Below, in pieces: positions 2,861 through 60,757 of a stretch of 64,000 bases of DNA. Both the position numbers and the translations under genes were made by a program. Origin of the DNA: Gemmatimonadales bacterium (lineage in GTDB: Bacteria; Gemmatimonadota; Gemmatimonadetes; Gemmatimonadales; GWC2-71-9); assembly GCA_035500495.1 (NCBI GenBank), contig DATJXC010000064.1, forward strand, positions 5,446-69,445, read 5' to 3'. The notes beneath the pieces are model-generated. The model saw only the letters and a list, made by a program, of their open reading frames with translations, did not search any database and was not told where the DNA came from. The first letter of the stretch is position 1, and the number at the start of each line of letters is the position of its first letter.

Positions 2861-2873
2861 GAGGTCAACCTCC

Positions 2874-4645: not shown

Positions 4646-4788
4646 GTTTCCTCGCTCGGTGGACGGGGCTGAAGAGAGCGTCCTGTTGGAGATACGCTGA
4701 AGTGTATCAAGGAGGTTTCGCCATATCTGGAGACCGGGACGGAAACGGCCACCGAGGTCGTCGGTGGCCGTGCGCTCAGTAGGGAAAG

Positions 4789-4870
4789 CGGAGGGCGCAG
4801 GACTCGAACCTGCAAGGGCTTTCACCCGCCGGTTTTCAAGACCGGTGCCTTACCATTCGGCCAGCCCTCC
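4789..4870 (-). tRNA. tRNA-Ser (anticodon UGA)
   Basis: Reverse complement reads GGAGGGC-TG-GCCGAATGGTAAGGC-A-CCGGT-CTTGAAA-ACCGG-CGGGTGAAAGCCCTT-GCAGG-TTCGAGT-CCTGC-GCCCTCC-G. It has a 7-bp acceptor stem, a TTCGAGT T-loop, a long variable arm (class II) and anticodon TGA. CCA is not encoded. Confidence 0.9.
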
Positions 4871-4906
4871 CGACCGGGCTAACCTAGCGGGCGCCGTCTC
4901 CCCCGG

Positions 4907-14665: not shown

Positions 14666-17425
<2,760 letters not shown>

Positions 17426-21885: not shown

Positions 21886-21905
21886 GCCGTGCCACTCGTG
21901 GGAGC

Positions 21906-41784: not shown

Positions 41785-41806
41785 GGCTCGTCGATTTGCT
41801 GCCTCA
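41782..41806. terminator. Weak hairpin between convergent ftsB and the beta-barrel gene; both stop codons lie in the stem (TGAGGC...GCCTCA)
   Basis: 6-bp stem TGAGGC/GCCTCA with a 13-nt loop and no U-tract. Confidence 0.25.
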
Positions 41807-45156: not shown

Positions 45157-48100
45157 TCATTGGAACATGACGGTTGCGGTTTGCGAGATCGCCACGCCGT
45201 TCACGGTGGCCGACACGACGGAGGTTTCGGCGCCGGCCGCCTTCACATAGCCTGTCGCCACGCCGTTGCTGTCCGTTGATCCCGGCTGCTGGTAGGTGTC
45301 GGTCCCATCCGAACTGATCGTGACGGATGCTCCGCTGATGGGGTTGCCCGCGCGGTCCAGCGCGGTCACCGTGACGGTTGACGAATCGCTGGCGGCCGTG
45401 ATCGGCGAGGTCGCCACGACCGTAGACTGCGACGCCGAGACGTTGCCGGGGTTCACGGTGGCGCTGAAGCCAACCGGAGAGCCGGTGAGACCCGCAACCG
45501 TGGCCGTCGCGGTGGCGCTTCCGGCTGTCGTGCCGAGCGCGCGCGTGGCGGAGGCGATCCCGCTCGCGTTGGTCGTCGAGCTCGGGGTAATCGAGCCCCC
45601 GCCCCCGGTCACGGCCCAGGTCACCGTCGTGCCCGAGACCGGATTCCCGTTGCGGTCGGTCACGAGCACAGTGTACGCCGTGGCGAGTGTCGCGCCGATC
45701 GTATCGGTCTGTGCGTTGCCGCCGCTGAGAGCGATCGTCTTGGCGTGGCCGGCGGTCGCCGTGGCGGTGAAGGCCACGGGGGAGCCCGTGAGCCCGGTGA
45801 CGGTGGCCGTGGCGGTCTGGGCATTAGCGCCCAGGGTAGTGCCCAGCACGCGGGTCGCACTGGCGATGCCGCTCGCGTTGGTGGTCGAGCTGGGGGTGAT
45901 CGACCCAGCGCCGCCCGTCACCGCCCAGGTCACGACCGTGCCGGAGACCGGGTTCCCGTTGCGGTCAGTCACGAGCACAGTGTAAGCCGTGGCGAGCGTG
46001 GCGCCGATCGTATCGGTCTGCGCATTGCCAGCCGACAATGCCATCGTCTTTGCGTTGCCCACCGTAGCGGTGGCGGTGAAGGTGACCGGCGAACCGGTGA
46101 GGCCCGTGACCGTTGCGGTGGCGGTTTGCGCGTTAGCGCCGAGCGTAGAGCCGAGCACGCGGGTCGCCGAGGCAATGCCGCTCGCGTTGGTCGTCGAACT
46201 CGGCGTGATCGACCCGCCGCCCCCGGTCACCGCCCAGGTCACGACCGTGCCGGAGACCGGATCCCCGTTGCGGTCGGTCACCAATACCGTGTATGGGGTC
46301 GCGAGCGTGGCGCCGATCGTATCGGTCTGCGCATTGCCGGCCGACAACGCAATGGTCTTGGCGTTGCCCGCGATGGCCGTGGCGGTGAACGTCACCGGAG
46401 AACCCGTCAACCCCGTGACCGTGGCGGTCGCGGTCTGCGCATTGGCGCCGGTCGTAGTACCGAGAACGCGGGTCGCCGAGGCAATGCCGCTCGCGTTGGT
46501 CGTCGAACTCGGCGTGATCGACCCGCCACCCCCGGTCGCCGCCCAGGTCACGGTCACATTCTGGACCGGATTGGCGAGGCGATCCGTGACCAGCACGCTA
46601 TAGGCTGTGGCGAGGGTGGCGCCGATCGTATCGGTCTGCGCGTTGCCCGCCGATAGGGCGATCGTCTTCGCGTTGCCGACGGTGGCCGTGGCGGTGAAGG
46701 CGACCGGGGAGCCCGTGAGCCCCGTGACGGTGGCGGTCGCTGTCTGCGCATTGGCGCCCAGCGTGTTGCCCAGCACCCGCGTGGCACTGGCGATGCCGCT
46801 GGCGTTGGTGATGGACGACGGAGTGATCGAACCGCCCCCACCGGTCACCGCCCACGTGACCGTGGTACCCGAGACCGGGTTCCCGCCAGCGTCGGTGACG
46901 AGCACGCTATAGGCCGTGCCGAGCGTAGCGCCGATCGTGTCGGTCTGCGCATTGCCCGCCGACAAGGCGATGGTCTTGGCGTTACCCGCAGTGGCGGTGG
47001 CGGTGAACGCCACGGGGGAACCAGTCAACCCGGTGACCGTGGCGGTGGCCGTCTGTGCGTTGGCCCCAAGCGTGGTTCCCAGAACCCGCGTGGCCGAGGC
47101 GATGCCGCTCGCATTAGTCGTGGATGATGGCGTGATTGACCCGCCGCCCCCCGTCGCGGCCCAGGTGACGGTCACGTTGGCGACCGGGTTCGCCAAGCGG
47201 TCCGTCACCAGGACGGTGTAGGGGGTGGCGAGGGTAGCCCCGACGGTATCGGTTTGGGCGTTCCCCGCGTTGAGGGCGATCGTCTTGGCGTTGCCCGCCT
47301 TTGCCGTGGCGGTGAACGCAATCGGGGAGCCGGTGAGCCCGGTGACCGTGGCGCTCGCCGTCTGGGCGTTGGCCCCAAGGGTCGTGCCCAGCACCCGCGT
47401 GGCGCTTGCTATGCCACTGGCATTGGTGGTGGATGAAGGGGTGATCGAGCCGCCTCCACCGGTCGTCGCCCACGTCACGGTCGTGCCGGAGACGGGATTG
47501 CTGCCCCGATCAGTGACGAGCACGGTGTAGGCCGTGGCGAGCGTCGCGCTAATCGTGTCGGACTGGGCGTTTCCGCCGTTCAGGGCGATCGTCGCGGCAT
47601 GGCCCGCGGTGGCGGTCGCCGTGAATGCCACAGGCGAGCCAGTGAGACCGGTGACCGTTGCTGACGCGCCCTGGGGCCCTGCGGTCGTCCCCAGCACCCG
47701 CGTGGCTGACGCGATGCCGCTGGCATTGGTGACCGAGCTGGGGGTGATGGACCCGCCACCCGACGCTGTCCAGGTGACCGTTACACCGGCGACCGGGTTG
47801 CTCACCGCATCCGTGACGAGGACGGTGTAGGCTGTGGCGAGCGTAGCGCCGATGGTGTCGGTCTGCGCGTTGCCGCCGGCGAGGCCGATCGTCTTGGCGC
47901 TACCGGCGGTCGCCGTGGCGGTGAAGGTGACCGGCGAGCCGGTGAGTCCCGTGACCGCAGCGGTGGCGGTCTGCGCATTGGCGCCGGTCGTAGTACCGAG
48001 GACCCGGGTCGCGCTGGCGATGCCGCTGGCGTTGGTCGTCGAACTCGGCGTGATCGACCCGCCGCCTCCAGTCACGGCCCAGGTGACGGTCACGTTGGCA

Positions 48101-51100
48101 ACCGGGTTCGCCAAACGGTCGGTCACCAGGACGGTGTAAGGTGTGGCCAGGGTGGCCCCGACCGTATCGGTTTGGGCGTTACCGCCGCTGAGCGCGATGG
48201 TCTTCGCGTTGCCGACGGTGGCGGTGGCGGTGAAGCTGACCGGGGAGCCCGTGAGCCCTGTGACCGTAGCGGTCGCGGTCTGGGCGCTGGCACCGAGCGT
48301 GCTGCCCAGCACCCGCGTGGCACTCGCAAGGCCACTCGCGTTAGTCGTCGAGCTCGGCGTGATCGATCCGCCGCCCCCGGTCGCCGCCCAGGTCACGGTC
48401 ACATTCTGGACCGGATTGGCGAGGCGATCCGTGACCAGCACGCTATAGGCTGTGGCGAGGGTGGCCCCGATCGTATCGGTTTGGGCGTTGCCCGCCGACA
48501 AGGCGATCGTCTTGGCGTTGCCGACGGTGGCCGTGGCGGTAAACGTCACCGGAGAGCCCGTGAGTCCAGTGACGGTGGCGGTGGCGGTCTGCGCATTGGC
48601 GCCCAGCGTATTGCCCAGCACCCGCGTGGCACTGGCGATGCCGCTGGCATTGGTGATGGACGACGGAGTGATCGAACCACCCCCACCGGTCGCCGCCCAC
48701 GTGACGGTGATACCCGCAACTGGGTTCCCGCCACCATCGGTGACGAGCACGCTATAGGCCGTGCCGAGCGTGGCGCCGATCGTATCGGTCTGGGCGTTGC
48801 CCGCCGACAGGACAATGGTCTTGGCGTTGCCCGCGGTGGCGGTGGCGGTGAACGTCACCGGAGAACCGGTGAGGCCTGTGACCGTGGCGGTCGCGGTCTG
48901 GGCGTTGGCGCCGAGCGTCGTGCCGAGGACCCGCGTGGCCGAGGCGATGCCGCTCGCACTGGTCGTGGATGATGGCGTGATCGAGCCACCGCCCCCCGTT
49001 ACGGCCCAGGTGACCGTCACATTCGCCACGGGGTTGGCCAGCCGATCGGTGACCAGCACGGTGTAGGAGATAGCCAGGGTCGCCCCTGCCGTATCGGTTT
49101 GGGCGTTCCCCGCGTTGAGGGCGATCGTCTTGGCGTTGCCCACCGTCGCGGTGGCGGCGAAGGCGACTGGGGACCCCGTGAGCCCGGTGACCGTGGCGCT
49201 CGCCGTCTGGGCGTTGGTCCCGAGGGTTGTGCCCAGCACCCGCGTGGCACTTGCAATACCACTGGCATTGGTAGCGGAGGACGGGGTGATCGAGCCGCCG
49301 CCCCCGGTCACGGCCCACGTCACCGTCGTGCCGGAGACCGGATTCCCGTTGCGATCGGTGACCAGAACGGCATAGGCCGTGGTGAGTGTGGCGCCGATCG
49401 TATCGGTCTGCGCGTTGCCCGCCGACAACGCGATCGTCTTCGCGTTGCCGACGGTGGCCGTGGCGGTGAACGTCACGGGAGAACCAGTGAGTCCCGTCAC
49501 CGTAGCAGTCGCGATCTGGGCGTTGGCGCCGAGCGTGGTGCCGAGGACCCGGGTGGCCGAGGCGATGCCGCTCGCATTGGTCGTGGATGATGGCGTGATC
49601 GACCCGCCGCCCCCGGTCACGGCCCAGGTGACGGTCACGTTCTGAACTGGATTAGCGAGGCGATCCGTGACGAGAACCGTGTAGGCCGTGACGAGGGTAG
49701 CGCCGATCGTGTCGGTCTGGGTGTTACCACCCGACAGCGCGATCGTCTTCGCCGCTCCGACGGTGGCCGTGGCGGTGAAGGCCACGGGGGAGCCGGTGAG
49801 CCCGGTCACCGTAGCGGTCGCGGTCTGAGCATTGGCGCCGAGCGTGGTCCCGAGCACGCGCGTGGCGGAGGCGATGCCACTAGCGTTGGTCGTCGAGCTC
49901 GGCGTGATCGAGCCGCCGCCCCCGGTCACGGCCCAGGTGACGGTGGTCCCGGAAACTGGATTCCCGAGGCGGTCGGTGACGAGCACGGTGTAGGCGGTGG
50001 GGAGGGTCGCACCGATCGTATCCGTCTGGGTGTTGCCACCGTTCAAGGCAATGGTCTTCGCGTTGCCGGCGGTCGCGGTAGCGGTGAAAACCACCGGGGA
50101 GCCTGTGAGCCCGGTGACGGTGGCCGTCGCGGTTTGCGCGTTGGCGCCGAGCGTGCTCCCCAGCACCCGCGTCGCGGTGGCGATCCCGCTCGCGTTGGTG
50201 ACGGACGACGGAGTAATCGAGCCGCCGCCGCCGGTCGCCGCCCAGGTGACGGTGGTCCCGGAAACCGGATTGCCGAGGCGGTCGGTCACGAGGACCGTGT
50301 AGGCCGTGGCGAGCGTGGCCCCGATCGTGTCCGTCTGCGTGTTCCCGGCACTGAGGGCGATGGTCTTCGCGTTGCCCGCGGTCGCCGTGGCGGTGAAGGC
50401 CACGGGGGAGCCCGTGAGCCCGGTGACCGTGGCCGTGGCCGTCTGCGCGTTGGCGCCCAGCGTCGGGCCGAGTACGCGCGTCACGCTGGCGATCCCGCTT
50501 GCGTTGGTGGTCGAGCTCGGCGTGATCGACCCGCCGCCGCCGGTGACGGCCCAAGTGACGGTGGTGCCGGCCACGGGGTTCGCGGCCCGATCCGTGACGA
50601 GCACGGTGTACGCCGTGGCGAGGGTTGCGCCGATCGTATCGGTCTGCGCGTTGCCTCCGTTGAGAGCGATGGTCGCCGCGTGGCCGGCGTTCACGGTGGC
50701 CCCGAACGCGACCGGGGAGCCGGTGAGCCCGGTGACAGTGGCCGACGCGGTGGCGCTGCCGGGCGTGGTGCCGAGCACCCGAGTCGCACTCGCGATCCCA
50801 CTCGCGTTGGTGGTCGAGCTCGGCGTGATCGACCCGCCGCCGCCGGTCACCGCCCAGGTCACCGTGGTGCCCAAGACGGGGTTGCCGCTCCGGTCGGTGA
50901 CCAGGACGGCGTAGGCTGTGCCGAGCGACGCCCCGATCGTATCAGTCTGAGCATCGCCGCTGTTCAAGGCCATGATCGCGGCGTGGCCGGTCGTGACGGT
51001 GGCGGTAAACGCGACCGGGGAGCCGGTGAGCCCGGCGACGGTGGCCGAGGCGCTGGCGCTGCCGGGCGTCGTCCCGAGCATTCGGGTCGCACTCGCAATC

Positions 51101-54100
51101 CCACTCGCGTTGGTGGTGGAAGACGGCGTGATCGACCCGCCGCCGGTGGTGACGGCCCAGGTGACCGTGGTGCCCGAGACGGGGTTGCCGCCGCGATCGG
51201 TGACGAGGACCGCATAGGCGGTGGCCAGTGTGGCGCCGATCGTGTCGGTCTGGGCATTGCCCGCGTTGAGCGCGATCGTCGTGGCGTGACCCGCGGTCAC
51301 CGTGGCGGTGAAGGCGACTGGAGACCCACTGAGTCCCGCGACCGTGGCCGAGGCGGTGGCGCTCCCGGCGGTCGTGCCGAGCACACGGCTCGCCGTGGCG
51401 ATGCCGCTGACACTAGTCACCGAGCTCGGCGTGATCGAGCCACCGCCCCCCGTCACGGCCCAGGTCACCGTGGTGCCCGAAACGGGGTTGCCACTGCGGT
51501 CGGTTACGAGGACGGCATAGGCCGTAGCGAGCGTGGCGCCGATGGTGTCGGTCTGCGCGTTGCCCGCATTGAGGGCGATCGTCGCTGCATGTCCGGTGGT
51601 CGCGGTGGCCGTGAAAGTCACGGGAGACCCCGTGAGTCCGGTGACGCTGGCCGTCGCCGTGGCGCTGCCTGGTGCCGTGCCGAGCACTCGGGTTGCCGTG
51701 GCGACCCCGCTGGCGTTGGTCACCGAGCTCGGCGTGATCGACCCGCCGCCGCCGGTCACGGCCCAGGTCACCGTGGTGCCGGAGACGGGATTGCCGCTAC
51801 GATCGGTCACCAGGACTGTGTAGGGCGTGGCGAGCGTCGCCCCGATGGTGTCGGTCTGCGCGTTGCCGGCGTCGAGGGCAATGGTGGCGGCGTGACCGGC
51901 GTTCACGGTGGCGGTGAACGCGACCGGGGAGCCGGTGAGCCCGGTGACGGCGGCCGAGGCGGTGGCGCTACCGGGTGTCGTGCCGAGCACCCGGGTGGCA
52001 CTGGCGATTCCGCTCGCATTGGTGGTCGAGGATGGCGTGATCGACCCACCGCCGCCGGTCACGGCCCAGGTCACGACGGTGCCGGAGACCGAATTCCCGT
52101 TGCGATCGGTTACCACCACCGTGTAGAGCGTGGCGAGCGTCGCCCCGATGGTGTCGGTCTGGGTGTTACCACCGGATAGCGCGATGGTCTTCGCCGTCCC
52201 AGCGGTGGCCGTGGCGGTGAAGCCGACTGGAGAACCGGTGAGCCCGGTGACGGTGGCGGAGGCCGTTTGCGCGTTGGCGCCGAGCGTCGTGCCCAGCACC
52301 CGCGTTGCCGTGGCGATGCCACTCGCGTTGGTGGTCGAGCTGGGGGTGATCGACCCGCCGCCCCCGGTCACCGCCCAGGTCACGATAGTACCGGCGACCG
52401 GATCCCCGTTGCGGTCGGTGACCAGGACCGTGTAGGGCGAGGTGAGTGTGGCCCCGATAGTGTCGGTCTGGGCGTTGCCCGCGTTGAGGGCGATGGTGGC
52501 CGCGTGTCCGGCCGTCGCGGTCGCCGTGAAGCCGACAGGCGAGCCGGTCAGGCCCGCCACGGTCGCGCTCGCGGTCTGGCTGCCGAGCGTCGTGCCGAGC
52601 ACCCGGGTGGCGCTGGCGATTCCGCTCGCGTTGGTGGTCGAGGATGGCGTGATCGACCCACCGCCGCCGGTCACGGCCCAGGTCACGACCGTGCCGGAGA
52701 CCGGATTCGCATTGCGGTCGGTGACGAGCACGGTGTACGCCGTGGCGAGGGTCGCCCCGATCGTATCGGTTTGCGCGTTGCCCGCGCTGAGGGCGATGGT
52801 CGCCGCGTGGCCGACGGTTGCAGTGGCGCTGAATACGATCGGGGAGCCGGTGAGCCCGGTGACCGCGGCGGTGGCGGTCTGGAGGTTGGCGCCGAGCGTC
52901 GTGCCGAGCACCCGGGTGGCGCTGGCGATTCCGCTCGCGTTGGTGGTCGAGGATGGTGTGATCGACCCACCGCCGCCGGTCACGGCCCAGGTCACGACCG
53001 TGCCCGCGACCGGATTTCCATTGCGATCGGTTACGAGCACGGCGTAGGGCGTGGCGAGCGTGGCGCCGATCGTGTCGGTCTGGGCATTGCCGCTGGACAA
53101 GGCGATAGTCTTGGCGTCGCCGGCCGTGGCCGTCGCGGTGAAGGCGACTGGCGAACCGGTGAGTCCGGTGACGGCCGCCGTCGCGGTCTGCGCATTGGCG
53201 CCGAGCGTCGTGCCGAGCACGCGGGTGGCGGTGGCGATGCCACTCGCATTGGTCGTCGAGGACGGCGTGATCGACCCGCCCCCGCCGGTCACCGCCCAGG
53301 TAACCGTCACGTTGGAGACCGGGTTACCGAGACGGTCGGTGACGAGCACCGTGTACGCGGTAGCGAGTGTCGCGCCGATGGTGTCGGTCTGGGCGTTGCC
53401 CGCGTTGAGGGCGATAGTTGCCGCGTGTCCGAACGTCGCGGTCGCCGTGAAGCCGACGGGGGAGCCGGTCAGGCCCGTCCCGGTCGCGCTCGCCGTCTGG
53501 CTGCCGAGGGCCGCGCCGAGGACCCGTGTGGCGCTGGCGATCCCGCTGGCGTTAGTCGTGGAAGACGGGGTGATCGACCCACCGCCCCCGGTCACGGCCC
53601 AGGTCACGACCGTGCCGGCGACCGGATTTCCGTTGCGGTCGGTTACGAGCACCGTGTAGGGCGTGGCGAGGGTCGCTCCGACGGTGTCCGTCTGCGAGTT
53701 ACCGCCAGAGAGGGCGATGGCGTTCGCCGCCCCGGCGGTGGCTGTGGCGGTGAACGTGATGGGGGAGCCGGTGAGCCCGGTGACCGTGGCGGTGGCGGTC
53801 TGGGCGCTGGCGCCGAGCGTCGTGCCGAGCACCCGAGTGGCGCTGGCAATCCCGCTCGCGTTGGTGCTCGAAGATGGGGTGATCGACCCGCCGCCGCCGG
53901 TCACTGCCCAGGTGACGGTCACGCTGGGCACCGGATTGCCCAGACGATCCGTGACGAGCACGGTGTAAGCGGTCGCCAGCGTCGCCCCGATCGTATCGGT
54001 CTGAGCGTTGCCGGCCGACAAGGCGATCGTTTTCGCGTTGCCGATCGTCGCGGTGGCTGTGAACGTGACCGGCGAGCCGGTGAGCCCGCTGACGGTGGCG

Positions 54101-57100
54101 GTTGCCGTCTGGGCGTTCGCGCCGAGCGTATTGCCCAGCACGCGCGTCGCCGTGGCGATTCCACTCGCGTTCGTATTCGAGCTGGGGGTGATCGAGCCGC
54201 CGCCCCCGGTCGCGGCCCAGGTGACGGTGGTGCCGGACACGGGGTTGCCGCCCGCATCAGTGACCAGCACCGTGTAGGCCGTCGCGAGTGTGGCCCCGAT
54301 CGTGTCGGTCTGGGCGTTGCCGCCGGCGAGCGAGATGACCGATGCAGTCCCTGTGGTGATGTCGAACGCCGTACTCACGTCGTTCGTCAATCCCGTGGCC
54401 GTCGCGTCGAGCGTGTAGCCGGTGCCCACCTTGTTGACGCTCAGATCGGAGAACGTGGCCACTCCGCTTGCCGCCATGATCTGTTTGGTCCCGGCCAAGG
54501 TCGCGCCGCCCGGATTACTGCCGAAGGCCATGGTGACCTGGTTCGTGGCGGTGGTGACACGGTTCGAGAACTGGTCCAGGATCTCGACTTCCACCGCCGT
54601 CAGCGTGGCCGTGGCGGTGGTGCTGATCGGCTGGGTGAAGAACTTGACTGACGCGGCGTTCGCCGGCGTGACAGTGACCGTGGCCTGCTGGGTGATCGCC
54701 ACTCCGCCCACGGTGGCGGACACCATCTTGGACTCGGCTCTCGTGGAGCTCAGTGTCCCACTCGCGGCACCACTCACGTCCGTATTGCCGGAGGGGGGCG
54801 TCAGGGTATTCCCGTTCGTCGGGTTGGCAGCGAGGACCACCGCCTTGTTCTTGATCACGTTGCCGAACTGATCGCGTGCCGTGACGGTGATCGTGCTGAC
54901 GATGGATCCGCTCGAAGCGGCGATCGAGGCCGGGGAGGCCACGACGCTCGTCTGCGACGCGCTCACCGCATCGGGGACCGTGAACGCGGTGAACGTCAGC
55001 GGTGAGGCGACGGCGGTAGCCTGGACGAGCTGCACGCTGTCGGTCGGGCTCATCGCCGTCCCCAGCGTCCAGCTGATCGAGGCGATGCCGCTCCCGTTCG
55101 TGACCGACGTCGGAGCACTGACCGAGCCGCCACCGTCGATCACCGACCACGACACGGTCACCCCCGAGACGGGGTTGTTCGAGGCATCGCGCACGAGCAC
55201 GGAGAGCGGAGTCGGCAACGTCTTCCCGACCGTGTCGGTCTGCCGGTCCCCGGCGTTGATGGTCATCTGGGTCGCGCCACCCGCCTGCGCCGTAATGCTG
55301 AACGTCACCGAGTCCGGCCCCCCGGTGAGCGTGGCTTTCGCGATCGTTGTCTGCGTCCCAGCCGTTCCGCCGAGCATGCGAGTCGTCTGCGCGTGCCCCG
55401 TGGCGTCGGTCACTGAGGACGGCGGGCTCACGGTCCCGAGTCCGCCGCCGGCCGTCCACGTGACGGTGACCCCGGGCACCGGATTGCCGTTGGCGTCGGT
55501 GATGAGCACGTCGTGGGGCGTCGCGAGCGTGGTGCTGACCTGCCCCGTCAGGTTGTCCCCGGAGAACTTGGCCAGGTTCGCGGCGGCGCCGACCTTGGCA
55601 GTGTCGACGAAGGTGAGGGGGCTCCCGGTGAGGCCCGTCGAGGTGGCGGTGACGGTGTCGGGCTTGGCGACCGTTGAGAGCGTCCAACTCGTGAGCAGCG
55701 CGATGCCGCTCGGGTTCGTCGTTTGGGAGGCGCCGGTGATCGAGCCGTTGGACGTTCCCACGGCGGCGAACGTCACCGGCACGCCGGCCACCGGATTGCC
55801 GCTCGAGTCGCTGACGATCACCGAGGGCGGCACCGCCACCGCCGTGTTGGCGGTCGCGGTCTGGTGGTTGCCGCCGTTGATCGCGACCTGCGTCGGGTCA
55901 CCCGCGGTGATACTAATGGTCCCCGAGGTCACGGCGTTGAGACCCGTGGCCGTGAAGGTGAGCGTGCGGGCGCCGACGGTGCCGGCGATCGCCAGGTTCG
56001 TGAATTGCGCGATTCCGGAGGCGTTACTCGTCGCGGTCGTCGTGCCCCAAAGGGCGCCACCACCCGTGGCGATCGCCGCGGTGACGACGATGCCCGCCTG
56101 ACCGACCGGGTTCCCGACCGAATCTTCGACCTGGATTTCCGGCTGCTGGCTGAAGGGCTTGTTGCTCTGCGCACTGGCCGACGGCTGGGTCGCAATCGCG
56201 AGCCGCTGCGCGCCGCCGGTCAGGATGTTGAAGGGGGCGGAGGTGGCGCCGACCAGTCCCGTGGCCTGCGCCGTCAGGATATAGCCGGCACCGGCTTTGT
56301 TGATGCTCAGGTTCGAGAATTGCGCGACCCCGGCCACGGCATTCACGGGATTGGTTCCGCCGAGGGTGCCACCTCCCGGGTTCGCGGCAAACCCGAGGGT
56401 CACCGCATTCGTGGCCCCGGTGACGCGGTTGCTGTCCAGATCCTGCACCTCGACCTGCACCGTCGGGATCGTCGCTCCCGCCGCCGTCGTCACAGGCGGA
56501 ACGATGAACTTGAGGTGGTCGGCAGCGCCGGGGTTGACGACGACCGATGCGGTCTGCGTCACCACCACATGGTTGATGGTCACCGAAACGGTCTTGGTCT
56601 CGGCGACCGTCGAGGTGAACGAGCCGGTGGCCACGCCGGATGCGTTGGTCAGACTGCTCGGCGGGGTCACGTTGGTGCCGCCCGGCGGGGTCACCGTGAT
56701 CGCCACGGTGTCCCCACTAATCAGATTGCCAAATGCATCCTTGGCAGTGACCGTGACGGTCGACGCCGCTCCGCCCGCCGTGATCGGCGATGCCGCTGTC
56801 ACGGTTGATTGGGAGGCCGAGACGGGGGCAGGGGTGACGATCACGGTCTGCGTTTGCGTCACATTGACTCCGCCGATCTTGGCGGAGACGGTCTTGGTCT
56901 CGGCAACCGTTGAGCCGAAGGAACCCTTCGCGTTCCCATTCACATCGGTCACCACGGCTGGCTGGGTGACGGTATCTCCGGTGGCGGGGGAAACGAGGAT
57001 CTTTACCGTGTCCCCTGAGACCGGGTTGCCGCTCGAGTCCCGCGCCGTGACGGTGACGGTGTCGGTCCCGGAGCCGGCGACGATGGAGCCCAGCGCCACC

Positions 57101-60100
57101 GCGAGGGTGGACTGGGTCCCGGACACGCCGCCGGCGGTGATGCTGAACGGAGTGCTGAGGGTGTCCCGCAGCCCGGTGGCCGTTGCGAGGAGGTTGTATC
57201 CCGTGCCGGCCTTGTCCACCGACAGGTTGCTGAACGTCGCGACTCCGGCCACGGCGGACATGGTCTTGTTGCCCGCGAGAGTGGCGGAGCCCGCGTTGGC
57301 GAGCGCGACCGTGACTGCCGCAACGAAGCCGGTGTCGGTGTTGCCGAACGTGTCGCGCGCCGCGACCTGTACCGGGGGAGCGAGGGTCGCGTTGGCGTTG
57401 CCGCCACCGGGTTGCACCGCGAACTCGAGGTGATTCGCCGGCCGCGGCCGGATGTTGAAGGCGGTGCTCGTGTCGCCGGCGAGCCCACTCGACGATGCGG
57501 TGAGAGTATAACCAGCGCCACTCTTGTCGAGATTCAGATCGCCAAAGGTGGCCACCCCGGCCGTGGCGGTCACGGTCAGCGTGCCGCGCAGCGTGCTGCC
57601 GCCGGGGTTGTTGCCTCGCGCGATGGTGATGGGCCCGGTAAAGCTCGGGACCGTATTCCCCTGCAGGTCCTGCGCGGCGACCTGCACCGCGGGCGCGATG
57701 CTCGTGCCGGCGGTGGTACTGCTCGGCTGCACGATGAACCGCACCCGCGCGGCCCCTCCAGCCGTGACGTTGAACGTCGAGCTCGTGGCGGGGGAGGGGC
57801 CGGTGGCGGTGGCCTTGAGGGTATATCCGGTTCCGGCCTTATCGATCGTGAGATTGGAGAATGTCGCCACGCCCGCCACCGCCGCCTTGCTCAAGGTCCC
57901 CGTCAACGTGCCACCGCTCGGGTTCGTGGCGATCGCGATGCCAATGCTGCCGGTGAACGCCGTCGCGACGTTGCCGAACGCGTCCTGGGCGGTCACCTGG
58001 ACGGCCGGGATGGTCGCTCCCGCGACGGCGTCCGCGGGTGGCACCGAGAAAATCAGGGTGGCTGCCGTCGCCGGCTTGACAATCACGGTCGCCGTCTGGG
58101 TGATCGTGTCCGTCCCGATCGTGGCGAAGACCGTCTTCGCGCCCGCGAGGGTCGAGGCGAGCGACCCGGTCGTCATTCCGTTCACGCCGGTCGCGGCCGA
58201 AGGTTGGTTCAGCGTATTCCCGTTTCCGGGCGTGGCCACGAGGTTGACGGTCGCGCCGCTCACTGGGTTCCCGAGACTGTCCCGGGCGGTCACGGTGATC
58301 ACCGCCGTTCCACTTCCCGCCACGATGGTATCGGGACTCGGCGCCACGGTGGAAAGGGACCGGGAGATGGACCCCGGCTGCACATTGAACGGCGAGCTCG
58401 TCACCGTGAGCGTGGAGCTGCTGGCGCGCAGTGTGTATCCCGTGCCCGCCTTGTCGATCGACAGGTTCGAGAAGGTCGCCACTCCGCTCACGGCCCTCAC
58501 CGTCCTTGTTCCGGAAAGCGTGCCACCGCCTGGGTTGGTGCCGATCACGATCGTGATGCTGTCGCCAAAGCTCGCGAGGGTGTTCCCGAGTGCGTCTTGC
58601 GCGGCAACCTTGATGGCCGGCGCGATGGCGCTGCCGGCAGTGGTGCTGCCCGGTGGCTGCGTGGTGAAGACGAGCTGCGACGGCGTGCGCGCGACCACGA
58701 AGGCCGTGTCTGGGTTGCTGCCGAAGTGAGTCCACGCGCTCCGCCGATTGGTGTTGTCGACCGCCCGCGCCTGCCAGTGATAGGCCACGTTGTCGCTGAC
58801 CAGAATGGAGAGGCTCGCGACGGAGTTGTTGGCGACGGCGCTGCTCGACCCCGTGGCCGTATCGGCGAAGGCATTACCGGCCGGCTCCAGCTCGATCTCG
58901 AGCCGCACCAGGGCTCCCGAGTCGGGGTCGGCGAGGGTGCCCTTGAAGACGACGCTCGACTGCTTCGCAATACCGCCAACCGGAATTGGCGTCACCCCGT
59001 CGGCCTGGAACTGACCGAGGGTGGCTGGGGGATCGGGTGGGGACTGCAGGACGACGCGGAAGTCGGTGGCGCTCTCGGCGTTGGCCCCGAAGCTCACCCA
59101 CGCGCTCAGCCGGCCCGTCTGGTCTTCCGTACGAGCCTGCCAGTGGTAGCTGGTGTTGTTGATCAGGCTGGTCACCCGGACAGCGGCGATGCCGGTGGTC
59201 GAAACCGCTGTGCTGGAATCGGTCGGGTTTTGGTTAAACGTCTGCCCGACTGGGCGCACTTCGATCAACAGTTTCAGTTGGTCGCCGGGATCGGGATCGG
59301 TGAGTGTGCCCTTCAGCACAACACACGCGGTATCCACCGTCACTCCGGTCGTAATGCTCGTGACGCTGTCACACTTGAACATGCCAAGTGATGCTGGCAC
59401 GAACGGGGGCTGAGGAATCGATACGATGAAATCCGGAGCCCCCGGGATGGTACCGAACGGGGTCCAGTTTCCCCGCCTCCCAGTCTGGTCCACCGCGCGC
59501 ACGCGCCAGTGATACGGGGTGTCGTCGCTCAACCCCGTGACGAGCACCTGTGCGCGTTTGCCGTTTCCCACGACCGTCCCGGTCGCGGTGACGGCGCCGG
59601 CGAAACCCTGCGAATTGGGAATGACTTCGGCTTCGAGGTACAGACTGTCGCCTAGGTCCGGGTCGGTCACCCGCGCCTCGATCACCATCTGCGACTTCGC
59701 AACGGCGCCGCCCAGGGGGATGACGGTCGTGGAGTCGTCCTGGAACTGGGCGGGCGAATCCGGCGGGTTCGGAATGCGCGGGTGCGCCACGTGCAGAACG
59801 AAAGCGCCGGTGTCCCCCGCTGCCGCGGTCGTCGCCTCGATCGTGTACGTCCCGGTACGCGGCAGCACCACGTAAGGAAGGCAGACCTCACCGGCGATCC
59901 CGCTGCAACCGCCCGATTCCCCCATCGGCGGCACCGCCGGAGCGGTATTGGTATCGAGCACGAGGTGCCCGTTGAAGGCGGCGGAGTCGAGCTGGATCGT
60001 GATCGTGTCGCCGGCGGTGCCGCCGAAGCTGAACAGCTTCGCGAAGCTGCCGGCGCGGTGCGGGGCACCGCAGTCCGCCGAGGTCAGCGTGTCGGCCACC

Positions 60101-60600
60101 CGCGCGCCCGCGAGCAGCGGCGTGACGGCGCAGGACTGAACGGTGAGCCGTACGCCGATGGGAAGTGATCCGCCCGACGCCCCGGTGGATGAGACCAGCA
60201 GCGTATCGCGGTAGGTGCCGGCCGCGAGTCCCGCGGGATTCAGGAAGACCCGGACCTTCGACGCGCCGGCGGGTGTGGCGGTGCCGCTCGTCGCGCTGAA
60301 CGAAAGCCAGGGACTCGCGCCTTTGGTCGTCAGCCGCCAGTCGAGCGATCCGGCACCGAGATTGCCGATGATGAGCGTGTCGGTCCGCTTGGCCGTGGCG
60401 CCCGCGAAGGCGGAATCCGCGAGGCTGTCGGGAGCGAGTTTCAAGAGCCCACCTTCAGGCGGGTTCACCAGCTTGTCGAGCTGACAGGTCGCGAGGACGG
60501 CGGTGGCGGCCATGACGAAGACCGCCGCCAAGCGGTTGGTGGCTGCGCGTGGCCGCGCTGGGCGAATGTCCAGAGGTTCTAAACGCACGAGAGGACGCAA
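45157..60600 (-). CDS. Giant (5,147 aa) putative cell-surface lipoprotein built from tandem bacterial Ig-like domains
   Basis: Single uninterrupted 15.4-kb ORF. N-terminus ...RLAAVFVMAATAVLATC (lipobox-like). It is followed by BACON-like, PPC-like and three FN3-like modules, alternating Ig-like modules, then about 29 near-identical units and a terminal Big_1-like domain. Start TTG 60600 or GTG 60588 (uncertain). Confidence 0.85.
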   Translation of the reverse strand: MRPLVRLEPLDIRPARPRAATNRLAAVFVMAATAVLATCQLDKLVNPPEGGLLKLAPDSLADSAFAGATAKRTDTLIIGNLGAGSLDWRLTTKGASPWLSFSATSGTATPAGASKVRVFLNPAGLAAGTYRDTLLVSSTGASGGSLPIGVRLTVQSCAVTPLLAGARVADTLTSADCGAPHRAGSFAKLFSFGGTAGDTITIQLDSAAFNGHLVLDTNTAPAVPPMGESGGCSGIAGEVCLPYVVLPRTGTYTIEATTAAAGDTGAFVLHVAHPRIPNPPDSPAQFQDDSTTVIPLGGAVAKSQMVIEARVTDPDLGDSLYLEAEVIPNSQGFAGAVTATGTVVGNGKRAQVLVTGLSDDTPYHWRVRAVDQTGRRGNWTPFGTIPGAPDFIVSIPQPPFVPASLGMFKCDSVTSITTGVTVDTACVVLKGTLTDPDPGDQLKLLIEVRPVGQTFNQNPTDSSTAVSTTGIAAVRVTSLINNTSYHWQARTEDQTGRLSAWVSFGANAESATDFRVVLQSPPDPPATLGQFQADGVTPIPVGGIAKQSSVVFKGTLADPDSGALVRLEIELEPAGNAFADTATGSSSAVANNSVASLSILVSDNVAYHWQARAVDNTNRRSAWTHFGSNPDTAFVVARTPSQLVFTTQPPGSTTAGSAIAPAIKVAAQDALGNTLASFGDSITIVIGTNPGGGTLSGTRTVRAVSGVATFSNLSIDKAGTGYTLRASSSTLTVTSSPFNVQPGSISRSLSTVAPSPDTIVAGSGTAVITVTARDSLGNPVSGATVNLVATPGNGNTLNQPSAATGVNGMTTGSLASTLAGAKTVFATIGTDTITQTATVIVKPATAATLIFSVPPADAVAGATIPAVQVTAQDAFGNVATAFTGSIGIAIATNPSGGTLTGTLSKAAVAGVATFSNLTIDKAGTGYTLKATATGPSPATSSTFNVTAGGAARVRFIVQPSSTTAGTSIAPAVQVAAQDLQGNTVPSFTGPITIARGNNPGGSTLRGTLTVTATAGVATFGDLNLDKSGAGYTLTASSSGLAGDTSTAFNIRPRPANHLEFAVQPGGGNANATLAPPVQVAARDTFGNTDTGFVAAVTVALANAGSATLAGNKTMSAVAGVATFSNLSVDKAGTGYNLLATATGLRDTLSTPFSITAGGVSGTQSTLAVALGSIVAGSGTDTVTVTARDSSGNPVSGDTVKILVSPATGDTVTQPAVVTDVNGNAKGSFGSTVAETKTVSAKIGGVNVTQTQTVIVTPAPVSASQSTVTAASPITAGGAASTVTVTAKDAFGNLISGDTVAITVTPPGGTNVTPPSSLTNASGVATGSFTSTVAETKTVSVTINHVVVTQTASVVVNPGAADHLKFIVPPVTTAAGATIPTVQVEVQDLDSNRVTGATNAVTLGFAANPGGGTLGGTNPVNAVAGVAQFSNLSINKAGAGYILTAQATGLVGATSAPFNILTGGAQRLAIATQPSASAQSNKPFSQQPEIQVEDSVGNPVGQAGIVVTAAIATGGGALWGTTTATSNASGIAQFTNLAIAGTVGARTLTFTATGLNAVTSGTISITAGDPTQVAINGGNHQTATANTAVAVPPSVIVSDSSGNPVAGVPVTFAAVGTSNGSITGASQTTNPSGIALLTSWTLSTVAKPDTVTATSTGLTGSPLTFVDTAKVGAAANLAKFSGDNLTGQVSTTLATPHDVLITDANGNPVPGVTVTWTAGGGLGTVSPPSSVTDATGHAQTTRMLGGTAGTQTTIAKATLTGGPDSVTFSITAQAGGATQMTINAGDRQTDTVGKTLPTPLSVLVRDASNNPVSGVTVSWSVIDGGGSVSAPTSVTNGSGIASISWTLGTAMSPTDSVQLVQATAVASPLTFTAFTVPDAVSASQTSVVASPASIAASSGSIVSTITVTARDQFGNVIKNKAVVLAANPTNGNTLTPPSGNTDVSGAASGTLSSTRAESKMVSATVGGVAITQQATVTVTPANAASVKFFTQPISTTATATLTAVEVEILDQFSNRVTTATNQVTMAFGSNPGGATLAGTKQIMAASGVATFSDLSVNKVGTGYTLDATATGLTNDVSTAFDITTGTASVISLAGGNAQTDTIGATLATAYTVLVTDAGGNPVSGTTVTWAATGGGGSITPSSNTNASGIATATRVLGNTLGANAQTATATVSGLTGSPVTFTATATIGNAKTIALSAGNAQTDTIGATLATAYTVLVTDRLGNPVPSVTVTWAVTGGGGSITPSSSTNASGIASATRVLGTTLGASAQTATATVTGLTGSPITFTATATAGAANAIALSGGNSQTDTVGATLATPYTVLVTDRNGNPVAGTVVTWAVTGGGGSITPSSTTNASGIASATRVLGAALGSQTASATGTGLTGSPVGFTATATFGHAATIALNAGNAQTDTIGATLATAYTVLVTDRLGNPVSNVTVTWAVTGGGGSITPSSTTNASGIATATRVLGTTLGANAQTATAAVTGLTGSPVAFTATATAGDAKTIALSSGNAQTDTIGATLATPYAVLVTDRNGNPVAGTVVTWAVTGGGGSITPSSTTNASGIASATRVLGTTLGANLQTATAAVTGLTGSPIVFSATATVGHAATIALSAGNAQTDTIGATLATAYTVLVTDRNANPVSGTVVTWAVTGGGGSITPSSTTNASGIASATRVLGTTLGSQTASATVAGLTGSPVGFTATATAGHAATIALNAGNAQTDTIGATLTSPYTVLVTDRNGDPVAGTIVTWAVTGGGGSITPSSTTNASGIATATRVLGTTLGANAQTASATVTGLTGSPVGFTATATAGTAKTIALSGGNTQTDTIGATLATLYTVVVTDRNGNSVSGTVVTWAVTGGGGSITPSSTTNASGIASATRVLGTTPGSATASAAVTGLTGSPVAFTATVNAGHAATIALDAGNAQTDTIGATLATPYTVLVTDRSGNPVSGTTVTWAVTGGGGSITPSSVTNASGVATATRVLGTAPGSATATASVTGLTGSPVTFTATATTGHAATIALNAGNAQTDTIGATLATAYAVLVTDRSGNPVSGTTVTWAVTGGGGSITPSSVTSVSGIATASRVLGTTAGSATASATVAGLSGSPVAFTATVTAGHATTIALNAGNAQTDTIGATLATAYAVLVTDRGGNPVSGTTVTWAVTTGGGSITPSSTTNASGIASATRMLGTTPGSASASATVAGLTGSPVAFTATVTTGHAAIMALNSGDAQTDTIGASLGTAYAVLVTDRSGNPVLGTTVTWAVTGGGGSITPSSTTNASGIASATRVLGTTPGSATASATVTGLTGSPVAFGATVNAGHAATIALNGGNAQTDTIGATLATAYTVLVTDRAANPVAGTTVTWAVTGGGGSITPSSTTNASGIASVTRVLGPTLGANAQTATATVTGLTGSPVAFTATATAGNAKTIALSAGNTQTDTIGATLATAYTVLVTDRLGNPVSGTTVTWAATGGGGSITPSSVTNASGIATATRVLGSTLGANAQTATATVTGLTGSPVVFTATATAGNAKTIALNGGNTQTDTIGATLPTAYTVLVTDRLGNPVSGTTVTWAVTGGGGSITPSSTTNASGIASATRVLGTTLGANAQTATATVTGLTGSPVAFTATATVGAAKTIALSGGNTQTDTIGATLVTAYTVLVTDRLANPVQNVTVTWAVTGGGGSITPSSTTNASGIASATRVLGTTLGANAQIATATVTGLTGSPVTFTATATVGNAKTIALSAGNAQTDTIGATLTTAYAVLVTDRNGNPVSGTTVTWAVTGGGGSITPSSATNASGIASATRVLGTTLGTNAQTASATVTGLTGSPVAFAATATVGNAKTIALNAGNAQTDTAGATLAISYTVLVTDRLANPVANVTVTWAVTGGGGSITPSSTTSASGIASATRVLGTTLGANAQTATATVTGLTGSPVTFTATATAGNAKTIVLSAGNAQTDTIGATLGTAYSVLVTDGGGNPVAGITVTWAATGGGGSITPSSITNASGIASATRVLGNTLGANAQTATATVTGLTGSPVTFTATATVGNAKTIALSAGNAQTDTIGATLATAYSVLVTDRLANPVQNVTVTWAATGGGGSITPSSTTNASGLASATRVLGSTLGASAQTATATVTGLTGSPVSFTATATVGNAKTIALSGGNAQTDTVGATLATPYTVLVTDRLANPVANVTVTWAVTGGGGSITPSSTTNASGIASATRVLGTTTGANAQTATAAVTGLTGSPVTFTATATAGSAKTIGLAGGNAQTDTIGATLATAYTVLVTDAVSNPVAGVTVTWTASGGGSITPSSVTNASGIASATRVLGTTAGPQGASATVTGLTGSPVAFTATATAGHAATIALNGGNAQSDTISATLATAYTVLVTDRGSNPVSGTTVTWATTGGGGSITPSSTTNASGIASATRVLGTTLGANAQTASATVTGLTGSPIAFTATAKAGNAKTIALNAGNAQTDTVGATLATPYTVLVTDRLANPVANVTVTWAATGGGGSITPSSTTNASGIASATRVLGTTLGANAQTATATVTGLTGSPVAFTATATAGNAKTIALSAGNAQTDTIGATLGTAYSVLVTDAGGNPVSGTTVTWAVTGGGGSITPSSITNASGIASATRVLGNTLGANAQTATATVTGLTGSPVAFTATATVGNAKTIALSAGNAQTDTIGATLATAYSVLVTDRLANPVQNVTVTWAATGGGGSITPSSTTNASGIASATRVLGTTTGANAQTATATVTGLTGSPVTFTATAIAGNAKTIALSAGNAQTDTIGATLATPYTVLVTDRNGDPVSGTVVTWAVTGGGGSITPSSTTNASGIASATRVLGSTLGANAQTATATVTGLTGSPVTFTATATVGNAKTMALSAGNAQTDTIGATLATAYTVLVTDRNGNPVSGTVVTWAVTGGAGSITPSSTTNASGIASATRVLGTTLGANAQTATATVTGLTGSPVAFTATATAGHAKTIALSGGNAQTDTIGATLATAYTVLVTDRNGNPVSGTTVTWAVTGGGGSITPSSTTNASGIASATRALGTTAGSATATATVAGLTGSPVGFSATVNPGNVSASQSTVVATSPITAASDSSTVTVTALDRAGNPISGASVTISSDGTDTYQQPGSTDSNGVATGYVKAAGAETSVVSATVNGVAISQTATVMFQ
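45445..54350 (-). repeat. In-frame tandem array of about 29 near-identical ~303-309-bp units (101-103 aa Ig-like domains)
   Basis: Unit consensus: GNAKTIALSAGNAQTDTIGATLATAYTVLVTDRLGNPVSGTTVTWAVTGGGGSITPSSTTNASGIASATRVLGTTLGANAQTATATVTGLTGSPVAFTATATA. I counted 29 SITPSS motifs. The antisense ORFs in the track recur every 309 nt (46607, 46916, 47225, 47534, 48143, 48452, 48761...). Boundaries are +/- 30 nt. Confidence 0.9.
58700..59760 (-). repeat. Three divergent ~120-aa FN3-like modules, each ending in Y-H-W-(R/Q)-x-R-x-x-D-x-T-x-R-x-(G/S)-x-W-x-x-F-G
   Basis: The three motifs are PYHWRVRAVDQTGRRGNWTPFG (~59.5 kb), SYHWQARTEDQTGRLSAWVSFG (~59.14 kb) and AYHWQARAVDNTNRRSAWTHFG (~58.78 kb). 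Spacing is ~365 nt. Boundaries are approximate. Confidence 0.6.
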
Positions 60601-60683: not shown

Positions 60684-60757
60684 GGCGGCGTAGCTCAGCT
60701 GGTTAGAGCAGCGGAATCATAATCCGCGGGTCGGGGGTTCGAGTCCCTCCGCCGCTA
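60684..60757 (+). tRNA. tRNA with anticodon CAT: elongator tRNA-Met or tRNA-Ile2 (lysidine-modified); not initiator-like
   Basis: Reads GGCGGCG-TA-GCTC-AGCTGGTTA-GAGC-A-GCGGA-ATCATAA-TCCGC-GGGTC-GGGGG-TTCGAGT-CCCTC-CGCCGCT-A. The cloverleaf is complete. Position 1:72 is a G-U wobble. The anticodon stem lacks the three consecutive G-C pairs of initiator tRNA. Confidence 0.88.

Follow-up and report, generated by a model that had tools for sequence, protein, structure and literature searches.

We analyzed a stretch of 64,000 nucleotides from an uncultured Gemmatimonadales bacterium (GTDB lineage Bacteria; Gemmatimonadota; Gemmatimonadetes; Gemmatimonadales; GWC2-71-9), taken from contig DATJXC010000064.1 of GenBank assembly GCA_035500495.1 (positions 5,446 to 69,445 of the forward strand). 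This stretch is called the window here, and all coordinates refer to it. One giant gene covers 24% of its length. It lies on the minus strand at 45157..60600 and is a single uninterrupted reading frame that begins with TTG and encodes 5,147 amino acids (aa); the mature protein has a computed mass of about 490 kDa and an isoelectric point of about 6. An earlier note, made by a model from the letters and a list of open reading frames (ORFs), had reported one uninterrupted 15.4-kb ORF for 5,147 aa in a quarter of the window, and the ORF was borne out. The position given there also matched, and the strand, which was not stated, was found to be minus. The note dealt with the giant gene only and missed its conserved downstream partners; as judged from gene order at other loci, it is the first of four same-strand genes that form a conserved cluster.

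The gene is genuine and intact, and its limits are correctly drawn. The G+C content at third codon positions (GC3), obtained from a codon-position analysis, was 0.864, compared with 0.84-0.86 in the neighbour genes, and the overall G+C content of the gene was 69%. Long plus-strand ORFs that run across the repeat array (up to 794 aa) were rejected as shadow ORFs; they are rich in G+C at codon position 1, not 3. Codon 1 (TTG) and codon 5 (GTG) are the first candidate starts, with TTG 24 and ATG 30 further on. Translation begins at the TTG or possibly at the GTG of codon 5, and the long form is plausible because the two later starts would leave the hydrophobic stretch without a charged n-region. 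No obvious Shine-Dalgarno sequence was seen ahead of the TTG. A tRNA-Met gene (CAT; 60684..60757, plus strand) lies divergently, only 83 bp upstream of the start of the giant gene, and the promoter of the 15.4-kb gene is therefore within the short spacer or overlaps it.

The giant protein is built of 5 + 44 contiguous β-sandwich domains, the latter forming a stalk of immunoglobulin (Ig)-like domains without linkers; all the segments described below are encoded on the minus strand. The signal peptide (60484..60600) has an Arg-rich n-region, an h-region at aa 23-38, and a lipobox-like L-A-T-C with Cys39, followed by Q-L-D-K-L. The base module begins with a BACON-like β-sandwich (60133..60447, aa ~52-156) and continues with a PPC-like (pre-peptidase C-terminal-like) β-sandwich that carries C157/C177 and a DCGAPHR motif (59746..60132, aa ~157-285), and with three FN3-like modules, each with a Y-H-W motif (58684..59745, aa ~286-639). 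The BACON-like domain matched Pfam BACON_2 with an E value of 4.6e-5 and 23.7 bits, below the cutoff of 25, and PF19190 is a precomputed annotation in homologues. Pfam PPC had an E value of 0.086 in the window protein, and PF04151 is precomputed in many homologues. The FN3-like modules matched Pur_ac_phosph_N (33.1 bits, cutoff 30), Ig_Rha78A_N (33.2 bits, cutoff 27.4), and fn3 (24 bits, cutoff 25).

AlphaFold2 modelled the N-terminal module (aa 1-650, with a family alignment of 27 sequences) as five β-sandwich domains with a predicted local distance difference test (pLDDT) score of 87, above 90 in the BACON-like domain. Only β-sandwich domains and nothing enzymatic appeared in the model. A Foldseek search with the module returned only generic Ig/FN3 chains and gave no functional lead (PTP-delta, contactins, ciliary HYDIN-like proteins, and complement MG domains); it was the FN3-like modules that matched the FN3 chains of contactin and PTP-delta. 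The earlier note had named a BACON-like domain, a PPC-like domain, and three YHW-type FN3-like modules, with which the near- or sub-threshold Pfam matches and the model agree.

The stalk starts with 14 heterogeneous Ig-like domains (54355..58683, aa 640-2082), namely six of a type that we call A, a single variant, four that are Big_1/Invasin_D3, and three that are related to the array unit but diverged from it. An array of 29 tandem Big_1 units of 100-103 aa follows (45445..54354, aa ~2083-5052), and the chain ends in a Big_1/Invasin_D3 domain (45160..45444, aa 5053-5147) with the stop codon directly after it. A single array unit taken alone scored 37.4 bits against Pfam Big_1 (PF02369), above the gathering cutoff of 34.9. 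The unit, which the earlier note could not assign to a named adhesin family, is thus a Big_1 domain. The note could not assign the N-terminal combination either, and there it was right that a name is lacking: NCBIfam has no named family for the giant protein, nor for genes 3 and 4 of the cluster. Big_1 also matched the B-type and C-terminal domains (48 bits), a diverged unit-type domain (43.4 bits), and multi-domain segments (108-165 bits), and the C-terminal domain reached 49.1 bits with Invasin_D3. Outside the array there are five Big_1/Invasin_D3 domains (four in the stalk and the C-terminal one). Altogether 37 of the 44 Ig domains in the rod pass Big_1, a count for which four of the 29 array units were scanned directly, six are type A domains without a Pfam match, and one is a sub-threshold variant.

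The type A domains are located at aa 641-742, 845-947, 950-1051, 1055-1156, 1360-1461, and 1981-2082, and share the pattern ...Q-P...AG..I.P.V.V.A.D..GN....F.G.I......GG.L.G......A..GVATF.NL.I.KAG.GY.L.A... They had no match in the local copy of Pfam; homologues carry the newer Pfam accessions PF26198, PF26182, and PF26918. A family profile that includes the type A domain matched tens of thousands of proteins, and most of its top-scoring giant hits (up to 6,874 aa) matched through this domain, many times over.

Seven Cys residues are present in the giant protein, at positions 39, 157/177, 232/240, and 410/426. This layout suggests three close pairs and a free Cys39, which fits an exported, acylated protein. 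The five-domain extracellular region of invasin is an 18-nm rod, or ~3.6 nm per domain. By this analogy, the 49 domains would probably make a fibre of roughly 175 nm, so that the length of more than 100 nm proposed in the earlier note was conservative. The C-terminal Big_1/Invasin_D3 domain would be the distal tip if the N terminus is the anchor.

The array was delimited by two methods. Tandem Repeats Finder gave a 309-bp period repeated 28.9 times (45441..54325, 77% matches), and motif anchoring gave 29 units of 100-103 aa that make up 58% of the protein, with no linkers between them. Both agree with the earlier description of one domain type repeated about 29 times over roughly 58% of the protein. 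The array contains 22.6% Thr, 17.8% Ala, 13.8% Gly, and 0% Glu. The units were said to differ by "very few substitutions", which the measurements contradict: mean identity between pairs of units was 83% for protein (range 73-95%) and 76% for DNA (range 67-91%), and the same codon was used at 53% of the identical residues. With the Nei-Gojobori method, the units had a mean dS of ~0.94, a mean dN of ~0.14, and a median dN/dS of ~0.145. Exact DNA repeats within the array reach 92 bp at most, and no k-mer of at least 99 recurs. Because the units have diverged, dN/dS is low, and long exact repeats are missing, the array is old, under purifying selection, and resolvable by short reads. The most similar units are six apart (R19/R25, 91%; R20/R26, 87%; R18/R24, 85% DNA identity), so that units R18-R21 resemble R24-R27 (window ~46.3-50.1 kb), and the 92-bp repeat falls at the same six-unit lag. 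This suggests that, within an array that is old as a whole, a block of about six units was duplicated comparatively recently.

The concern that an assembler might collapse or mis-join near-identical repeats had also been raised, on a premise that the 92-bp limit shows to be wrong. An exact-sequence lookup of the kinase-like neighbour protein led to three ENA contigs (L001, L002, and L003) assembled with MEGAHIT (k141) from other samples. L003 (ERZ27256589) comes from an independent metagenome assembly. Its collinear alignment to the window extends over 11.9 kb, spans the whole array, and shows 99.74% identity, 31 mismatches, and 0 gaps; it covers 9.9 kb of the giant gene gap-free. Inside the gene the two sequences differ by 18 synonymous and five non-synonymous changes. 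These differences are clustered at aa 2647-2660, 2724-2739, and 4603-4620, with, for instance, six synonymous changes in 14 codons. The pattern resembles gene conversion between units in short patches, or a switch of strain by the assembler, and not scattered point mutations. Two contigs of a sister species (L081 and L082, ~78% nucleotide identity) carry the same unit type, the C-terminal domain, and the downstream genes.

The gene might nevertheless be an artefact, either a chimeric or mis-joined repeat assembly or a decaying pseudogene still open by chance. In favour of this are the facts that every supporting assembly is short-read, that four related contigs (L001, L002, L081, and L082) stop inside the array, and that the single-nucleotide differences between assemblies are grouped in patches. 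On the other side, the longest repeat of 92 bp falls short of the k=141 that the contig names imply, exact repeats of at least 99 bp are absent, and the independent assembly is structurally identical without a gap. Purifying selection is strong both between units and between strains, a coding GC3 holds across the 15.4 kb, and family members of 4,425-5,517 aa occur elsewhere. We rejected misassembly or collapse of the array on the divergence of the units, the lack of repeated k-mers of 99 or more, and the gap-free independent assembly, and an assembly artefact or pseudogene is very unlikely.

The only hydrophobic segment of the giant protein is N-terminal, at aa 23-42. The motif [LVA][ATS]-T-C-[RQ]-[LV]-D-[KQ]-L ends the signal peptide in 102 of the 120 listed homologues, the remaining 18 being mostly N-truncated fragments, and Cys39 is an invariant column in our family alignment (A1). 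Being invariant across the family, with the motif in 102 of 120 members, the lipobox-like Cys is no chance feature. The canonical lipobox is [LVI][ASTVI][GAS]C. The giant protein has its n-region, h-region, and Cys, with Thr at position -1, as have 81 of the 102 motif-bearing homologues. The earlier note had taken a lipobox-like N terminus (...VLATC) as a sign of a lipid-anchored fibre; the motif is there, and lipidation of Cys39 would be the probable consequence. A canonical lipobox (...AAAAC) was seen in the same window in a predicted lipoprotein with a Big_5 domain (E value 4e-10; 13293..14858, minus strand). The organism therefore also uses ordinary lipoboxes, and Thr at -1 is a peculiarity of the giant-fibre family.

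The N-terminal 650 aa had 190 homologues at E <= 1e-5, with 35-47% identity, and all those with a named source came from Gemmatimonadales or from Gemmatimonadetes/Gemmatimonadota. A scan of the GTDB species representatives with the N-terminal module found 75 loci, essentially all in metagenome-assembled genomes of Gemmatimonadales, at a best identity of 49%, so that either the species of the window or this gene is missing from those representatives. Loci L052 and L053 come from metagenome-assembled genomes of Gemmatimonas. Alignment A1 had 46 invariant columns, among them C39, W88, W98, C157/C177, H364/W365, and Y485/H486/W487. The giant protein has both features that define the family: the Cys motif and, after it, the five-domain module, complete with C157/C177 and the YHW motifs. 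By sequence, the BACON-PPC-3xFN3 module is not peculiar to this gene; it defines a large unnamed family that is confined to Gemmatimonadales and has many giant members. A search of the literature on giant Ig-like proteins or surface lipoproteins of Gemmatimonadetes/Gemmatimonadota found nothing relevant.

The members of the family fall into a short and a long class. Short ones (617-780 aa) consist of the module and one type A domain. Among the long ones, complete ORFs encode 1,510-2,908 aa, and others of at least 3,000-4,000 aa run out of the fetched DNA. A profile search of 1.84 billion representative proteins recovered module-first members of 3,949, 4,425, 4,959, and 5,517 aa that keep the Cys motif, so a protein of 5,147 aa is large, not unique. 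With a hidden Markov model of the window unit, the unit-type Big_1 domains of relatives scored 50-80 bits compared with ~159 bits for the window's own; they are fewer and more diverged, which makes the homogeneous array of 29 copies particular to this lineage and the sister species, the orthologue of which ends in the same type of array unit.

Three genes follow the giant gene on the minus strand. Gene 2 (43506..45098) encodes a kinase-like protein with a Zn-ribbon, a Ser/Thr-kinase-like domain, a transmembrane segment at aa 374-393, a Pro-rich linker, and a C-terminal PEGA domain. Gene 3 (42445..43509) encodes a protein with a signal sequence, a TPR-like region, a FlgD-type Ig domain, and two transmembrane segments (aa 254-301); its profile matched the FlgD structure 7eh9 with an E value of 2.6e-7. 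Gene 4 (41804..42448) encodes 214 aa, with a signal peptide and a predicted 10-stranded outer-membrane β-barrel. The gap between the giant gene and gene 2 is 58 nt, with no predicted terminator. Gene 3 overlaps gene 2, and gene 4 overlaps gene 3, by 4 bp each, and these overlaps are conserved in other loci; the four genes may be co-transcribed.

The order family protein, kinase-like protein, TPR/FlgD-Ig protein, and barrel was seen in at least 15 other loci. In our tally the cluster was complete in nine loci and partial in six more. All four genes are present in L046, L056, L060, L062, L068, L069, L070, and L072, to which L084 and L086, reached from the barrel, are added; the cluster is partial in L004/L047, L048, L051, L063, and L064, and the sister-species contig L081 holds the end of the giant gene and all three partners. 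Partner proteins in the other loci were 32-54% identical to those of the window. Most loci of giant homologues stop at the 10-kb flank or at the contig end, their downstream ends lying beyond the fetched DNA. In a rough neighbour-joining tree of the N-terminal module, members linked to the cluster were spread over several clades and ranged from 617 to 5,147 aa. Cluster linkage thus looks ancestral, and the length of the stalk highly variable. A soil metagenome contig (L085, ERZ923197, 1..6630) carries two cluster copies in tandem, neither of them a full four-gene set: the first has a kinase-PEGA protein, a 365-aa protein, and a 219-aa barrel, and in the second a 244-aa and a 694-aa BACON_2 protein come with a FlgD_ig protein and a barrel of 209 aa. 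Both duplication of the module and splitting of its first gene are therefore possible.

The catalytic loop of gene 2 reads H-G-S-L-K-L-S-N where the Hanks motif is H-R-D-x-K-x-x-N, so that the catalytic Asp is replaced by Ser (in an alignment with a PknB reference). Orthologues beside two other long fibres are also degenerate, with HGDFQPAH and GFA for DFG in L046 and HGNVTPAN in L062, whereas those beside short members (L056, L060, L068-L070) and beside the 1,510-aa member L072 keep HRDVKPAN and DFG. Of the three further cluster-linked members above 1,500 aa, two (L046 and L062) thus share the degeneracy of the window kinase, and the protein is probably a pseudokinase in the window and at these two loci.

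Our results are best read as a Sec-exported, N-terminally lipid-anchored, fibrillar-adhesin-like surface fibre produced from a conserved four-gene cluster, a reading to which we give a probability of about 0.6. In it, Sec would export the protein, and Cys39 would most likely be acylated at an unusual, family-wide lipobox with Thr at -1, which would keep the N terminus at the outer membrane. The conserved base of five domains (BACON-like, PPC-like, and three FN3-like) would sit beside the membrane, and the single-chain rod of 44 Ig-like domains would reach ~160 nm further outward to its Big_1/Invasin_D3 end. The fibre could serve as an adhesin, a spacer, or a coat. The interpretation in the earlier note, an extended fibre anchored by a lipobox, would then be broadly right.

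Several observations weigh against this reading. Thr at -1 falls outside the usual [GAS] of the lipobox, and V-L-A|T-C can also be read as a site for signal peptidase I, in which case the Cys might be conserved but unlipidated. Genes for a type I (T1SS), type II (T2SS), or type IX (T9SS) secretion system or for Slam, which might move a 490-kDa lipoprotein across the outer membrane, are absent from the window. No known adhesive domain was found at either end of the protein. The most conserved module lies beside the anchor and not at the distal tip, which is atypical for an adhesin and would fit a coat or spacer at least as well; the BACON-like/PPC-like module is the candidate adhesive region, but it is at the anchored end. 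Some family members, namely L034, L023, and a clade of 743-776 aa, have no cluster. The short-read origin of all the assemblies and the four contigs that break off within the array, mentioned above, belong here as well.

The Thr-rich array may be glycosylated. A conserved D-T-I occurs in every array unit, giving 29 of the 57 D-[ST]-[AILVMT] sites of the protein, compared with 25 +/- 4 in shuffled sequences; the pattern matches the general O-glycosylation sequon of Bacteroidetes. This excess follows from the repeat itself and is therefore not independent evidence. A TMEM260-like protein O-mannosyltransferase of 769 aa is encoded ~38 kb from the giant gene (4907..7216, minus strand; PF11028, E value 6.6e-41). 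Human TMEM260 specifically O-mannosylates Ig-like IPT domains (PMC10214176). That the TMEM260-like enzyme acts on the giant protein is pure speculation, without linkage evidence.

Sequence searches with the product of gene 4 in Pfam, the PDB sequences, and NCBIfam gave zero matches, and only structure prediction and Foldseek identified a barrel. AlphaFold2 (55 sequences, pLDDT 88.2) predicted ten long antiparallel strands after the signal peptide, and the best Foldseek matches were the 10-stranded outer-membrane barrels OpcA (TM-score 0.63), Pla, and OmpT. Because the barrel model matches these folds, we infer an envelope with two membranes. We found 197 homologues of 202-224 aa, all from Gemmatimonadales where the source was named. 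In every context examined the barrel gene is the end of the same cluster, including all three of the homologues looked up on long contigs (L084, L085, and L086).

One outer-membrane component and two inner-membrane components with periplasmic domains are what would be expected of an assembly, anchoring, or sensing device, and the partners probably assemble, anchor, or monitor the fibre. A more elaborate proposal, unlikely in our judgement, is that the cluster encodes an undescribed envelope-spanning apparatus specific to Gemmatimonadales. In it the fibre, with its non-canonical Thr(-1) lipobox and a phylum-specific sorting motif after the Cys, would sit on the barrel or pass through it, and the PEGA-domain kinase would be coupled to the fibre via the TPR/FlgD-Ig protein. 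Such an apparatus would report the load or integrity of the fibre to the cytoplasm, or would be a new pathway dedicated to the display of lipoprotein fibres, in loose analogy to RcsF, which is threaded through outer-membrane proteins and signals inward.

A related idea, to which we attach a low probability, is a split inverse-autotransporter-like system acting in trans, in which the 10-stranded barrel (41804..42448) would be the conduit or socket for the N-terminal region of the fibre and the TPR/FlgD-Ig protein a periplasmic chaperone. The polarity of the fibre, a Big_1/Invasin_D3 rod with a distal C terminus, is that of intimin/invasin, and a dedicated barrel, confidently predicted in fold, is always co-encoded and seen only with the fibre family. 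Yet neither IAT_beta nor LysM was found in the giant protein, and the barrel has no sequence similarity to known translocators. Barrels of ten strands of the OpcA/OmpT type have narrow lumens, whereas those of autotransporters have 12 strands. A threaded passenger would not need the conserved lipobox-like anchor that the fibre itself carries, and some family members lack the cluster.

The lipid-anchored surface fibre also has to be set against a scaffold internal to the envelope. In that case the anchor would be in the inner membrane, or in the outer membrane on its inner leaflet, and the protein would remain periplasmic, running along the membranes as a spacer or structural part in contact with the PEGA and TPR/FlgD-Ig domains of the two inner-membrane partners. 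The absence of an outer-membrane translocation system nearby, the membrane-proximal position of the conserved module, and the two partners that are inner-membrane proteins with periplasmic domains speak for it, and the short members (617-780 aa) would fit in the periplasm. A rigid rod of ~175 nm, however, far exceeds the width of the periplasm. The BACON-first lipoproteins of the related Bacteroidetes are surface exposed, and the Thr-rich, charge-poor array resembles an exposed, possibly glycosylated region. Tandem Big_1 stalks are otherwise known on surface proteins (PMC9704523, PMC8286594). We therefore regard a scaffold as unlikely.

The residues after Cys39 also have parallels in surface lipoproteins. 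The motif C-[R/Q]-[L/V]-D-[K/Q]-L may direct sorting to the surface. In phylogeny, Gemmatimonadota are generally placed close to the FCB group, and in Bacteroidetes the Sus-type surface glycan-binding proteins have a lipobox and then a BACON domain. In lipoproteins of this type a short polar or acidic motif comes within a few residues of the lipobox Cys, ahead of a BACON-type domain, and the giant protein has the same order after its lipobox-like Cys. In Bacteroidetes the signal for lipoprotein export is K-(D/E)2 or Q-A-(D/E)2 (PMC5080379). In contrast, the C-Q-L-D-K-L of the giant protein has one acidic residue, a conserved Leu at +3/+6, and Thr at -1, and a Sus-type partner is absent. The likeness is positional and partly one of character.

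This arrangement raises the question of a glycan- or polymer-capturing surface lipoprotein with a nutritional role, in which the BACON-like and PPC-like domains would bind carbohydrate and the Ig array would present or multiply the binding surfaces. It overlaps in part with the surface fibre that we favour. The lipobox placed directly before the BACON-like domain is the Bacteroidetes order, and genes of SusC/SusD type occur within ~7-10 kb in three loci (L004, L085, and L086). However, no carbohydrate-binding module or glycoside hydrolase domain was found in the giant protein, and a SusC/D pair is absent from the window and not adjacent in most loci. The conserved neighbours are the kinase-like protein, the TPR/Ig protein, and the small barrel, not a TonB-dependent transporter, and a nutritional role of this kind is improbable.

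Returning to the lipid-anchored surface fibre, we compared it with the known surface-fibre systems. LigA/LigB of Leptospira have a similar overall plan: a signal peptide with a lipobox Cys, and directly after it many bacterial Ig-like domains in tandem, which build a fibre on the surface. They differ from the giant protein in that their domains are Big_2 and not Big_1, number 12-13 and not 44, and come without the BACON/PPC/FN3 base and without kinase, TPR-Ig, and barrel partners, in another phylum.

Intimin/invasin, like the giant protein, is a single-chain rod of tandem Big_1/Invasin_D3 domains with its C terminus distal, and its homologues vary widely in repeat number, with 2-47 BIg repeats (PMC9704523). 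The giant protein differs in having no barrel in cis, no C-type-lectin-like tip, and a lipobox-like anchor instead; the co-encoded barrel differs too, with 10 strands and an unrelated sequence. Pfam searches found neither IAT_beta (PF11924) nor LysM in it (aa 1-1700 at E <= 0.01; aa 1-300 at E <= 5). The inverse autotransporter was rejected: the 12-stranded IAT_beta is absent, and the last 95 aa are another Big_1/Invasin_D3 domain, not an adhesive tip.

The giant RTX adhesins exported by T1SS (SiiE, LapA, and MpIBP) range from hundreds of kDa to MDa and have tandem Ig-like extenders (PMC4083281, PMC12607715). Unlike them, the giant protein has no C-terminal T1SS signal and no N-terminal retention module, and it has a classical signal peptide instead. 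A T1SS RTX adhesin was rejected on the grounds that GGxGxD occurs nowhere in the protein and that ABC, membrane fusion protein, and TolC genes are absent from the window. Sorting by T9SS, sortase, or PEP-CTERM was rejected as well: by Pfam the last 414 aa are Ig-like only, and there is no C-terminal hydrophobic segment, LPxTG motif, or PEP motif.

The Periscope class is defined by repeats that are highly identical at the coding level and that vary in number among close strains (PMC9704523). Its members resemble the giant protein as monomeric surface rods of individually folding tandem domains whose length varies among homologues. Membership was rejected: DNA identity between units has a mean of 76% and a maximum of 91%, and the window and L003 have equal copy numbers (two strains only). 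Fibrillar adhesin-like proteins are extracellular rods of stalk domains with a usually terminal adhesive region (PMC8286594). The giant protein is like them in being predicted to be extracellular, with a long Big_1 stalk, an anchoring motif, and a single-chain fibre, and unlike them in having a recognised adhesive domain at neither end; a lipobox is not listed among the anchor types in the methods of the fibrillar-adhesin survey (PMC8286594). By its sequence the giant protein would be of the tandem-Ig surface-fibre type, yet it fails the defining tests of each specific family. Giant tandem-Ig surface proteins were already known; what is new here is the phylum-specific anchor motif, the base module, and the kinase-like, TPR-Ig, and barrel partners.

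Among the remaining genes of the window, two others encode large proteins that look unrelated to the giant gene. One is a Sortilin/BNR-repeat protein of 948 aa (14..2860, minus strand), and the other is a 926-aa ORF with cytochrome c7-like, HEAT, and TPR regions that overlaps the preceding ORF (21336..24116, plus strand). The rest are housekeeping genes (ValRS, ThrRS, PurH, SHMT, Lon, enolase, TilS, and HPRT).

Gemmatimonadota are abundant in soils, and their cell biology has barely been studied. The giant gene provides a well-resolved and probably intact case of a phylum-restricted family of giant fibres with members of up to ~5,500 aa. Its 29-copy array, diverged at synonymous sites, is a useful case whatever the role of the neighbouring genes, since this divergence makes it stable against recombination and open to assembly from short reads. 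The trio of partners fits no known secretion or anchoring system. If the partners are not a machine for display or sensing, the protein would be one more fibrillar-adhesin-like protein; if they are, the cluster would represent a new route by which very large lipoproteins are mounted on the surface of two-membrane bacteria.

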